Positions 57,378 to 64,000 of a DNA stretch of 64,000 nucleotides are shown here, in pieces (within the stretch, counting starts at the first letter, position 1; every line of letters starts with the position of its first letter). The stretch lies in contig OY740788.1 of NCBI GenBank assembly GCA_963514005.1, positions 45,880,001 through 45,944,000 of the forward strand, in the 5' to 3' direction. The stretch is from Raja brachyura (Eukaryota). Both the position numbers and the translations under genes were made by a program. The notes beneath the pieces were generated by a model. That model made no database searches. It worked only from the letters and a program-made list of their open reading frames with translations, and was not told where the DNA came from.

Positions 57378-57574
57378 TTGACGGTCGCAAGAATGACAAC
57401 TAAGTTTTGTAACTTTTATTCTAAAAATAGCTTAACTCACAGGTTCTTACAACATGTCTGACCACAATGTTGGTCAGCACTCAACTGCCGAGTGAAAGCA
57501 AAACCGCGTGAAAATCCAGCAGCCCCTCCCGAGTCCGGGTTAGAAACCTCCATGCGCCAGCAGGCGTCGCTATA
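57378..57574 (-). repeat. 3' LTR of the Gypsy element; PPT immediately adjacent (about 57575-57590)
   Basis: Similar to 60381-60621; minus-strand gattctggggggggca polypurine tract. Confidence 0.8.
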
Positions 57575-60367
57575 TGCCCCCCCCAGAATCCACGGTAAGG
57601 AAATGCACAGGTGCCCGGACGATTCGGCCGTAACGCATAGTCTGAGGTCGCGGGGCAAATGTAACAATAGGGGCCGGCAAAACAGAACCGGTGGGGTGCG
57701 ACAAATGCGAATGAGGGACGGGCGTAACAGAGGGGACCGGTGAAACATAACCGGGGTAACAGGTGCAGAGGGCGGCAAAACGGCCGGTGGACGTCCTCTA
57801 CGCTGCGGAGTGGCCACCGCCACCGGGCTATCCTCGTCGACGTGTGCTGGCTTAAGGCGGTTGATGGAGACGAACTCCTTGCCGCCCATATCCAACGTGA
57901 ACGGCGAGGTACCAGTCCTCAGCACCCTGTACAGACCTGGCGAGTGGTGAGCACCCCAACGAAGGAAAACATAAGCATAATCCCATAACATAGTAGGCAC
58001 ATGCACCGCGGACGACCCGTGTCGGGCTTTCAAAGCTGACTTGAGGTGTCTGTGGAAACGCTCAAACAATCCGTTTGACTCTGGATGATACGCAGTGGTC
58101 TGGTGCAACTTCGCACCATACACCTACGCCATACCACTCCACAGGGAGGACGTGATCGGTAGCCCCTTGATCGGTAGATCTGAAGGGACCCCGAAACGAG
58201 CGATCCAATGTGAGACAATAGCCGTGCACAAGCCTCAGCGGAGGTATCAGTTAACGGTATTGCCTCCGCCCACCTGGTGAACCTGTCCATTATAGTGAGT
58301 AAGTGAGTAGCCCCATGCGAACACGGCAAGGGACCTACCAGGTCAACATGAATGTGCAGGAACCTGTTCCAATGTGTCTGGAACAGCGAAATCCTGCACG
58401 GGCGGGCGCACATCCTCTGAACCTTAGAAGTCTGACAGATGATACAAGAACGGGCCCATGCTGCGACCTGCTTTCGTAACCTGTGCCAGATGAACTTGGC
58501 CACAACCAGGCCAGAGGTGGCGCGAATGGACAGGTGAGCTAGGCTGTGGATGGTGTCGAAAATCCGACGCCTCCAGGCAATCGGGTCAATACGGCGGGCT
58601 TTGCCCGTGGAGACATCGCAAAGTACCCGCACGCCGGTGGCGTCGCAGGACACCTTGCTCAATTTAAGGCCCGACTCAGCATTGTGGTAAACCTCCATGC
58701 CGGCATCAGCCTGCTGGGCAGCGGCCAGCTCCTCATAAACCACCCCTAGGCTTAAAGCGGAAACCTCAGGGACTGCCGGACGGGACAGCGTGTCAGCCAC
58801 AACGTTCAGCTTTCCGCCACATGCCGACTATCAGATGTGAATTCGGATATGTAGGCGAGGTGCCTCTGTTGCCTGGCGGACCAGGGATCGGACACCTTGG
58901 TCAAAGTGAGCGTGAGTGACTTGTGGTCCGTGAATGAGGTGAACGCGCGCCCCTCCAGGAAATAACGGTAATGGCAGATCGCTAGGTAAAGCTCGAGGAG
59001 TTCCCGATCAAAAGTGCTGTACTTGATCTCGAGGGCAAGCAGCTGCCTGCTGAAAAATGCCAGCGGCACCCAGCAGCTTCCTACCCATTGTTCGAGGACA
59101 GCACCCACCGCGACATCAGGTGCGTCCACGGTTAGGGCCGACGCCCTAAGGTGAACTACCATAATGGCATTGGCCAACGCTGTCTTAGCCCCCTCGAAAG
59201 CCATCTCAGCCTCCTTGGACCAGACCAGGTCCTTAGTCTTACCCGCCAGACACTGGTACAACAGCTGCATGATGGCGGCTGCTGACGGGACGAATCAATG
59301 GTAGAAATTTACCATTCTGATAAATGTTTGCAGGTCCTTGACGGATAGTGGCCTCGGGAAGCGACGGATAGCGTCGACCTTCTCGGGCAGTGGCTGTGCG
59401 CCGTGGCAGGTAATGCTGTGACCCAAAAAGGAAATGGAACGCAATCCGAACTGGCACTTCGCGGGGTTGATCACCAACCCATGTTTGCGCAGCCGTTCGA
59501 AGTGCAGGCGGAGGTGCCTAACTTGCTCTGTCTACGAGCTGCTGGCCACCAGAACATCATCGAGGTGGATGAATATGAAGGGCAAACCCCGACCGACCTG
59601 ATCCATTAGCCTCTGGAATGCCCGAGCAGCGTTCTTCAGGCCAAAAGGCATTCTGAGCAATTCGAAAAGGCCGAAAGGGGTGATGGTGGCCGTCTTAGGG
59701 ATGTCGTCGGGATGGACCGGAATTTGACTATACCCGCGAATGTGGTCGACCTTTGAGAAGAAAGTTGCGCCCTCCAAATGAGCCGAGAAATCCTTGATCT
59801 TCGGGACTGGGTACCGTTTTGCCGTGGTTACGGCGTTAAGACACCTGTAATCACCGCAAGGTCTCCAACCCCTGGCCGCTTTGGGTACCATGTGCAGTGG
59901 GGAAGCCTAAGGGCGAACCATCAGGCGAACTTCGTCGGGCATCTGCTCTAAGAACGCCTGTTGGTGGTGCCCGTACATCAGGGCTAACATCTTTGCCATG
60001 ATGGTGGATGGCCGACGCTGTCCATATGTAGAATCTTCGACGCCCTGCCTCTGCGACTGAGACTGAAGGTGTGGAGCAGGAGGGCCTTCAGACCTTCATA
60101 CTTGGCGATCGTTGGCGGGTCCCTGTTGTAAGGCAACAGCCTTGAGGCACAGTCCTGTGGCAGAGCTCCTACCTCATGGAAATACATGGTGTCATCCGCA
60201 ATAATGCGGTGCAGGTGAAACTGTGCCTCTACGTGGGCGAACCACACCTGAGGTTGATCCGGCCAAAATGAGGGTAGTTTGAAGCCCCGTGAGCCCTGCC
60301 TTATGCCGGTTGATTCTGCGGGAATCAACCTGCATGATCTTTTGCTTGTCTAACGACGGCTAGACAG

Positions 60368-61604: not shown

Positions 61605-61859
61605 CAAAATGCTGGCGTAAACTATGCGGGACAGGCAGGCAGCATTTCTGGAGAGAAGGAATGGGTGGCGTATCGGGTCGAGACCCTTCTTCAGACTGGA
61701 CGACCCGAAACGTCACCCATTCCTCCCCTCCAGAGATGCTGCCTAACCCGCTGTTACTCCAGCATTTTGCGTCTATCGTCGATTTAAACCTTCATCTGCA
61801 GCAAAGATTATAGAGTGGCTCCGCTCTATGATCTTTGCTCTGCAGTTCCTTCCTACACG
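61605..61859. mobile_element. Palindromic Penelope-terminus insert with 13-bp TSD
   Basis: TAAACCAATGCCA at 61592-61604 and 61860-61872; inverted arms centred near 61700. Confidence 0.85.
61802..61837. mobile_element. 36-bp palindromic micro-MITE (CAAAGAT...ATCTTTG)
   Basis: 17-bp arms with 2 mismatches; flanks ATCTGCAG / CTCTGCAG. Confidence 0.75.
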
Positions 61860-62080
61860 TAAACCAATGCCATCTATGTGATGCAAGCGTCAGCAGCAGC
61901 AAGTGACCAATCCAAGGTGGCACCAATTGCAGCGTTTGTTACTCCGAGAAGAGAAGACAAAACCAATGACATCGCTGATTATCTGAACACGCCCACATCA
62001 TAGAGCCAATCGAGCCCTAGGTTAGTGGGAGGCGATGCCTGAGGAAGCGGTACAGGAGGGGCGGCTGCGAGGAGGTGAGT
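61860..62080 (+). promoter_or_regulatory. Putative promoter and first exon of a downstream gene
   Basis: Five CCAAT boxes (61864, 61907, 61923, 61963, 62006), CpG enrichment, strong donor GAG|GTGAGT at 62074/62075. Confidence 0.5.
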
Positions 62081-62108
62081 GGCTTAGCGGGACTTCTGCA
62101 GTTGCTGC

Positions 62109-62134
62109 CAAAGATCCTCTAGCAAGGTTCTTTG
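62109..62134. mobile_element. 26-bp palindromic micro-MITE (CAAAGATCCT...AGGTTCTTTG)
   Basis: Perfect 8-bp direct repeat GTTGCTGC at 62101-62108 and 62135-62142. Confidence 0.8.
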
Positions 62135-62149
62135 GTTGCTGCCTGCACT

Positions 62150-62210
62150 GGGGTGGGGGTGGGGGTGGGGGTGGGGGGGGGGGGGTGGGGTGGGGTGGGG
62201 GTGGGGGTGG
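62150..62210 (+). repeat. (GGGGGT)n G-rich simple repeat, G-quadruplex potential
   Basis: About ten G-runs of 4 or more separated by single T. Confidence 0.85.
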
Positions 62211-64000
62211 CTCATCGGGACTGGCAGCTTCAATATATAACCGGCATCTGCAGTTGCTTCATACAAGGGAGGTTAAGTGCAGGGTTTAATACTCGTGCAG
62301 GTGAAGGTTTCGTCGTAGTTGTTGCGGTGAAAACAAAGTCGTTCTGGTGATGTCTTTAGGAGAAAAAGTCAATCACCTCCTCCCTTATCATCTGCATCTT
62401 CTAAACTCTGAACGGTTGAAGATGCCGACGGGAGGACGCAAGAAGAGAGACACCGTAGGCGACACAGTGCAAAGAGCGAGTCCAGATGGGCCGAGTTACT
62501 ATCCTTATTTATCTCCTTATTTGTGGGCAGTGGAGAGAATGTTTATTAGGTTGATTCCTTGGATCCATGGGCTTTCTTATCGGAAAAAGCTAGGTTGATG
62601 TTTATTAACGTTGACACCGAAGTTTCAGCGATTAGATTATGTAGAAAGATTGCATAAACTTTTATTTTTATTTACAAAAACCTCGCTGGTTACAATAAGA
62701 TTTGATTGAAAGTTTAAAGCTCTTTAGAGGAATGCACTGTAGGTGATTTGTGTCTGTTCATTGCAGATTCTAGGACCTGGTGTAGAATGAATTCAGAAGT
62801 GAATTTAGGAAAAAGTTCTAAAACTGCCCAAGTGAAAGTGTCTTTCATAAAAAGTGATTAATACAGGTACAATTATAAATATGAATCTCAAGATTAATAA
62901 CATAGTTAATGAATGTACTTAAAAATATGGAGCAGTTGAAGAAGTGTATGAAGGCATCAGCAGAGAGTGAAGACCTGCATATCTCTTTTCTGAGCTGAAA
63001 TGGTTTTCTTGGTTTTGGACTAAAGTCATTTCTCTGTCCAAAATCTTGCCAATTAGTGTGCACATTATGAAAGGTCATACACAGATGTCTTTTTTTGGAA
63101 AATTGACCACTGTCCTGGATTGAAATATTCTTTGAGAGTCGATCATACTTGACTGAGGTATTGTATTCATGATCAGTAACTATGTGGAACCTTTAGGATT
63201 ATGCAACCCAATGAAAATCAAGAGCCCGTGAAAATGTTTTCTTGGGGCAAGTGAGAGGAAACTGGAACCATTGTACACTACGGCAGGCTTACCAAGAAGG
63301 GAACCAAACAATGTCACTCAATGATATGAGCAGTCATGTGGGATGGTACCAATGAGAATAGTAAATATCAGACAATCTTATTGGTATCTTTCATTATCTT
63401 GGTTTCAGCGATGTGGCACAGGTAGGCACTTGAGAAGTTGTGAGAAATATGAGACTGATGTGTGAAGCAAAATCGTCTTTACAGACAAAGTAAGGATGGG
63501 CAGTAGTTTGCAAAGATGGAGACAGATCTTTTGTGAGAACATTCACATTAACAGGATCTAGGGTGACAATAACTGGAGAGAGGTCACCCGTTTATCATGT
63601 ACACTTTAGCAGCTTTTGATTGTTCATTAGGTGTGATACACCACTGTAGTGAATCAGAATTTACAGCAGTGCAATGGCTGTTTGACTCAACCGATCCATG
63701 CCACCATTATTGTCCAGCTATGCTCCATGAAGGCCTTGTACCACCATCTGCATAATCTTACATGATTCTCTTTCTATTCAGGTACACAAGTACTGACAAT
63801 GTACAGGGTTGTTGTAGGAATGTTATGTAAATGTTAGTCAGTAACTGCGGATTACAACTTTTGTTTGTTTTCGCAATACAAAACCGAAGATGTATTTTAA
63901 AAGCTTTTCTATATATCAATGTTTCTAGTGGCAAATGAACTGTCCAAAGATGTGTAGGTTTGTAGGTTAATTACTTTAGTGATAATCTTTCAAAACTCTT

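Follow-up and report, generated by a model that had tools for sequence, protein, structure and literature searches.

Introduction

The closest described counterpart of the feature reported here is the excision product of the Drosophila P element. According to the available part of PMC7776569, the P transposase of Drosophila cuts one strand at the tip of the element and the other 17 bp inside, and in the sections available of PMC2895639 the 17-nt 3' tails of element sequence that fly excision leaves on the chromosome are joined via microhomology, bluntly or with templated inserts, both target copies being kept. This 17-nt stagger is a signature oddity of the P transposase, reported for the fly enzyme alone in the accessible portions of PMC7776569 and PMC10983969. 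Moreover, YARNG is quoted as the P terminal consensus in the excerpt at hand of PMC2820524.

Here, a 26-bp unit enclosed by an 8-bp target site duplication (TSD) is described in a window (the whole stretch of DNA that was analysed, 64,000 nt, G000:C8:45880001-45944000) of Raja brachyura, together with similar stubs searched for in 2.7 Gb of genome. With a probability of roughly 85%, the unit is taken to be the donor-site scar of an excised P-superfamily transposon and not a mobile unit. On a broader scale, this genome rather likely preserves the traces of thousands of cuts made in the germ line by a vertebrate P/THAP9-type transposase, a fossil record that shows a stagger of about 20 nt.

Results

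The unit and its surroundings

Positions 62101-62142 of the window comprise two perfect 8-bp direct repeats and, between them, a 26-bp unit (62109-62134) whose 10-bp arms, with 9 of 10 positions matching, enclose a 6-nt spacer, exactly as claimed in the earlier note. The two copies of the target are the following:

62101-62108, + strand: left TSD copy, GTTGCTGC, read from the sequence
62135-62142, + strand: right TSD copy, GTTGCTGC, read from the sequence

When the window was scanned for units of 20-35 bp with arms matching at 9 of 10 positions or better and enclosed by a perfect 8-bp direct repeat, 62101-62142 was the sole match, and any match at all was obtained in one of 100 order-2 Markov control windows. 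The loose pattern CAAAGA-N5..35-TCTTTG matched five times in the window, against 0.36 expected. Furthermore, when the unit plus its left flank served as a DNA query against the genome, the self-match alone was obtained, in a search that skipped common words and does not imply uniqueness of the flank.

The unit consists of 18 and 10 bases of two element ends joined over AG:

62109-62126, + strand: 18-nt tip of the GCAAG-type end of a P-MITE of about 400 bp, with 17 of 18 letters equal to the end of MITE L255
62125-62134, - strand: 10-nt tip of the other element end, with a 2-nt AG microhomology (62125-62126) common to the first arm

The predicted 18+10-2 join and the unit differ at 2 of 26 positions, namely by one substitution in the first arm (62119) and one in the second (62128). 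Organism F has the parental A at 62119, and both substitutions postdate the join, which was also present at nine unrelated flanks. The arms of the window unit itself (16-18 and 8-10 nt) lie within the expectation for 17-nt tails, and this single unit is ordinary in itself and probably inert DNA.

A second stub was located about 300 bp upstream of the 26-bp unit:

61794-61845, no strand assigned: second putative scar, with a 36-bp stub (61802-61837) and a TSD matching at 7 of 8 letters, composed of 20 + 17 nt with a 1-nt overlap

This 36-bp stub represents a sister end variant, of which a long end was found at L062:1361, and it is held in a sequence tail that we take to be SINE-like. In another copy of this host tail (L002), a 26-mer appears at the equivalent position. 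The stretch 61790-62145 looks like a hot spot, as it has two scars in less than 350 bp and organism E shows as many as three additional, lineage-specific ones. It is also GC-rich, with CCAAT-like and GC-box-like words seen by eye; the site of the 26-bp unit is only moderately rich in CpG (observed/expected ratio of 0.60 vs. 0.42 for the window). Fly P elements are known to prefer promoters. No gene was identified near 61790-62145, where a 97-aa open frame (62305-62598) had no Pfam match. Other observations in the window include a 60-bp (GGGGT)n/G run immediately to the right of the unit (62150-62211), in which G-quadruplexes are possible in principle; a 44-bp inverted repeat with a 20-nt gap (61637-61744), formed by two head-to-head short repeat fragments; and broken open frames on the minus strand at 57437-60349, which by their motifs presumably resemble the gag-pol of a Gypsy-type retrotransposon.

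The parent element

The 20-nt end of the family occurred 1,564 times in the genome. Of the first 30 loci with this end, 23 continue into long elements, and in 17 of those 23 the opposite end was found as well, together with a TSD matching at 6/8 or better; these 17 have lengths from 371 to 1,196 bp, mostly about 400 bp. Over their first 45 positions, the two family ends agree at 38. A search for the GTP-binding domain of the P transposase gave 10 loci, one of which lies inside a 6,847-bp element with family ends and a perfect 8-bp TSD (L068:1381-8227), and the MITEs of about 400 bp match both ends of this element; around the genes of the other nine loci, no TSD-flanked pair of family ends was found within 10 kb. 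The same ends therefore bound both the short MITEs and a long element, which bears out the derivation from a longer element that the earlier note had offered as an option.

The domain order within the 6,847-bp element is a weak THAP piece, a TNP-like RNaseH_N, the GTP-binding domain (GBD) and RNaseH_C. PF21787, PF21788 and PF21789 were above the cut-off, and the THAP piece, at its expected place, was partial (E = 0.002, 19.3 bits vs. a cut-off of 23.9). The gene is decayed by frameshifts and inserts. For a related 700-aa open reading frame (L065), the sole PDB match was the Drosophila P transposase 6p5a (E = 1.4e-29). This open 700-codon core (L065:3982-6084) has no family ends in the 10 kb around it and would be either a recent copy from a different subfamily or a gene that has been domesticated. 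Moreover, the element ends begin with CAAAG, which fits the P consensus. Because of the P-type transposase domains, the 8-bp TSD and the YARNG-fitting ends, the parent is assigned to the P superfamily, with a THAP9-like transposase, and not to hAT, the origin suggested before from the TSD length; no hAT families were found in 18 minus-strand frames of one long parent, where the P-type was. As a separate observation, one or two scars of the same family were seen among short direct repeats in the subterminal region of the parent itself (L068:8016-8075).

Stubs across the genome

The genome was searched with a pattern in which the two 10-bp arms of the window unit were made symmetric. A total of 1,613 exact-ended stubs of 20-50 bp were found (control, 2), so that the search for further short TSD-flanked copies proposed earlier did reveal recurrent similar units. 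Stubs of 29-38 bp numbered 424, and those of 39-69 bp only 78 (control, 1). Flanks were compared in 149 units plus the two window units, a sample chosen by pattern and not at random, which fell into 88 flank clusters, 76 of them single. The 76 single-flank units had a perfect TSD in 45 cases and one of at least 7/8 in 61, while none of the 76 reached 6 matching letters in the shifted control. Over these 76 units, the mean match was 0.89 for a TSD length of 8 bp, vs. 0.20-0.29 at 4-7 and 9-11 bp.

Exact 26-mers appeared 35 times (control, 0): 23 occupy a single site in one host repeat, 9 belong to the common type and have unrelated flanks, and 3 are built otherwise. The TSD of three of the nine unique-flank 26-mers matched at only 4/8. 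The number of stub copies thus exceeds the number of events. When all microhomologies of at least 2 nt between arms of up to 20 nt were considered, the predicted joins had sizes of 12, 20, 22-28, 30, 32, 33, 37 and 38 bp. Those seen were 20, 22, 26, 27, 28, 30, 32, 33, 37 and 38 bp in the genome lists, whose size listing left out 23-25 bp, and 12 in organism E. Furthermore, stub types mirror the end types of the long parents: the 36-mers built from two GCAAG arms have counterparts among the parents in which both ends are of this type (like-ended MITEs, 6/30 loci). The longer units, as judged by eye, mostly have short stretches copied from end sequence close by between their arms, or tandem duplications of later date, and one stub (L037) is one-ended, with 18-20 bases of a single end inside the TSD.

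Many scars were carried by host repeats. In 92 copies of one of them, 65 were empty with a single target copy and 27 had the start of an element end; none of these 27 filled copies held a full element, by a pattern blind to one end type, and neither did any of nine matches in two other host repeats. Since no full element was seen at any of these stub sites, excision is deduced and was not directly caught. At one host site, 25 of the listed copies have the 26-mer and two have a 37-mer, the two versions differing by a deletion between two CT repeats, and stubs can therefore change size after the first event. For this reason, the window unit may itself have been shortened secondarily from a scar of 36-40 bp. 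The 37-bp stubs at the host site of the common 26-bp stub (L273 and L274; G000:C8:81074834 and G000:C12:28862904) could have arisen in either of two ways: a single insertion was repaired independently in separate copies of the host, or the palindrome was altered afterwards by deletion or template switching. In addition, 39/47-mers with a private insert remained in their host flank in 4/4 checked cases. Scars have been carried and multiplied by eight or more GC-rich, unclassified host repeats, each about 0.3-1.5 kb long (L001, L004, L005, L006, L017, L075, L100, L117 and others), and some of these repeats carry different scars at more than one site.

Arm lengths of the stubs

The arms of the stubs have a ceiling at base 20 of the element end. 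Among the short units, 189 arm matches had end bases 1-19 intact and a single one had bases 1-23 intact. For the other end type, none of 59 stub arms passed base 20, and 608 ends run on to base 23. The microhomology joins available, on the other hand, would favour longer arms, as there are 32 with an arm of at least 23 and only 4 whose arm is 19-22 long. Blunt 20+20 joins were represented by six 40-mers with unrelated flanks. The exceptions to the ceiling were few long-armed stubs, among them a 58-bp stub with a 45-nt arm (L121) and one more listed. Bases 19-20 are GC, itself a microhomology, and arms ending there may have been favoured, while base 21 (A) was ambiguous in some joins. One arm-length histogram biased by the patterns used for collecting units was excluded from this result. 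We infer from these arm lengths a long staggered cut by the transposase of the family, which would have left 3' tails of about 20 nt (range, 19-21) rather than 17, an estimate that we hold with moderate confidence.

In a sister family with other end letters, the search for such a ceiling gave 54 matches vs. 31 in the control, that is, mostly chance. Separately, a 40-bp sequence observed at L064:6346-6385 is nearly palindromic, is enclosed by a perfect 8-bp TSD and has other letters following CAAAGAT; it is possibly a 20+20 scar of the sister family.

The site in relatives

The unit was found at the window site in contigs of organisms B, C and F. The F contig is long and differs by 16 letters and 7 gaps over 283 bases, and those of B and C are short. 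Since the unit is present in all three, the scar is probably old and fixed before organisms B, C, F and the R. brachyura genome split. Neither an empty nor a full-length orthologue was found in B, C or F, and the contig of organism E ends at 62104. The empty sites for which a search had been proposed were thus recovered for the 26-mer class (65/92 copies of one host repeat) and not for the window unit in these relatives. Organism E presented two further stubs, each inside a perfect 8-bp duplication, at targets that are empty in the window:

61889-61896, + strand: empty target of a 9-nt stub in organism E, where the 8-mer is present twice, with 17 letters inserted behind 61888
62064-62071, + strand: empty target of a 12-nt stub in organism E, where the 8-mer is present twice; equal to the predicted GATC-microhomology join

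The 9-nt stub comes from one contig of run X10 (depth, 28.8), and the 12-nt stub was read by hand in one X10 contig, with insertions at 62057, 62060 and 62062 and a change at 62068. Ahead of 61876, the organism E contig shows another piece that resembles an element end. At lengths of 9 and 12 nt, stubs can hardly be taken for mobile units.

Discussion

The preferred reading is that a longer element with family ends would have inserted at the window site, duplicating 8 bp, and would later have been cut out in the germ line by its own transposase. Two single-stranded element tails, presumably 3' tails of about 20 nt, would then have remained on the chromosome, to be rejoined over the 2-base microhomology by a microhomology-mediated (polymerase theta-like) end joining.

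Three other explanations have to be weighed against it. The stubs could be true micro-transposons, 26-mers or palindromes of 38-40 bp moved in trans by the transposase of the family, as would fit the same 26-mer at nine unrelated flanks besides the window, the retention of at least 7/8 TSD letters in 61/76 unique-flank units and the single target copy in host copies without the unit (65/92). However, identical 26-mers at unrelated flanks are also expected from repeated joining, 23/35 exact 26-mers share one host flank, and the distinctive 39/47-mers with a private insert were tied to their host (4/4 checked). Besides, for every stub class there is a long parent whose end types correspond, and stubs as short as 9 and 12 nt have perfect TSDs in organism E (one contig). 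As for geometry, deduced from the available part of PMC7776569, cuts 17 or 20 nt inside both ends would leave no duplex in units of up to 34 or 40 bp, respectively; the 26-mer would therefore keep no double-stranded core, which makes its mobility unlikely. With copies mostly within host repeats, stub types that mirror the parents and no duplex core, the idea in the earlier note of one of the smallest mobile units is the least probable of those considered, with very little chance of being correct. A deletion driven by a hairpin is only slightly less improbable. In it, the inverted ends would pair during replication and the polymerase would slip between short direct repeats near the tips, with no cut by a transposase; the nearly precise excision of bacterial Tn10 is a comparable hairpin-slippage deletion. 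Such a process yields the same microhomology junctions and would explain the 58-bp stub with a 45-nt arm, and the 37- and 26-bp versions at one host site, which differ by a CT-repeat deletion, argue that slippage does act on these palindromes. Nevertheless, since the ends match beyond base 20 (38/45) and long-arm joins are more available (32 vs. 4), a hairpin deletion would not stop at base 20, yet arms of at least 23 were seen once vs. 189 times for the shorter ones, so that the ceiling already speaks largely against this mechanism. Broken ends would also be needed for the blunt 20+20 joins, for the inserts that look templated and for the one-ended L037 stub with its TSD. A recurrent collapse product, as proposed before, was hence close to right as to the outcome, while the ceiling at base 20 points to excision by a transposase and end joining, not to the collapse of a hairpin.

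The third explanation shares the excision and would differ in the cut. It assumes tails of 17 nt as in Drosophila, with arms of 18-20 nt produced when gap repair copies a short stretch from the sister chromatid and the ends are joined afterwards. In its favour, 17 nt is the sole stagger given in the portions available of PMC7776569 and PMC10983969, most fly repair products include incomplete synthesis followed by end joining in the accessible text of PMC2895639, and the window unit itself needs only 16-18 nt. Repair synthesis would predict, however, a spread of longer arms and not a stop between bases 20 and 23 (189 vs. 1), and blunt 20+20 joins recur at six unrelated sites. Tails of 17 nt are thus considered unlikely, though clearly less so than the two explanations above, and the donor-site scar with a longer stagger is preferred.

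Should this reading be true, P elements would not be bound to a stagger of 17 nt, and both the cut geometry of extinct transposases and their end-joining choices would be readable from genome assemblies. The 20-nt ceiling offers a concrete prediction for a vertebrate family and tests whether the looped-out end in the fly structure has a fixed length. Moreover, the scars amount to an extensive natural collection of end-joining products formed in the germ line from long tails that are not complementary. In annotation, very short palindromes flanked by a TSD and bearing P-type ends belong among scars, not micro-MITEs.

With regard to other systems, the hAT superfamily is alike in its 8-bp TSD, but the parent transposase here is P-type. 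Excision of hAT elements is not known to leave element tips at the donor site. Some P-MITE ends of Anopheles gambiae begin with CAAAG. The P-MITEs of this mosquito, as presented in the available text of PMC1562414, are likewise non-autonomous, with ends and an 8-bp TSD common to a P master, which fits the parents of about 400 bp; they differ in spanning hundreds of bases and keeping subterminal DNA, and the word 'footprint' is absent from that text. The portion at hand of the Galileo paper (PMC2775673) contains nothing on footprints either. Zebrafish Pdre2/THAP9 (PMC10983969, PMC7776569) and medaka Izanagi (PMC2820524), in the sections available, resemble the present family in the 8-bp TSD, the YARNG-fitting motif, the combination of THAP, RNase H and GTP-binding insertion, and the existence of internally deleted copies. 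Their end sequences differ, with inverted ends of 13 bp (Pdre2) and 27 bp (Izanagi) vs. imperfect ones of 34-42 bp here, and neither stubs nor cut geometry are described for them in those sections. A literature search over titles and the starts of abstracts found no such stubs in cartilaginous fish and no stagger other than 17 nt; the family may be present in Repbase or Dfam.

The closest likeness is with the P{wa} excision junctions of Drosophila, where, in the accessible part of PMC2895639, both 8-bp target copies are found with the tips of both ends between them, together with microhomologies of 1-6 nt, blunt joins and templated-looking inserts. Those junctions are laboratory recoveries with tails of 17 nt, whereas the stubs of R. 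brachyura are fixed in the germ line, in more than 1,600 exact-ended copies, some of them spread within host repeats, and the arms of their class reach up to 20 nt. The feature in the window is real and probably a scar of a known kind, and the cut geometry is likely new.
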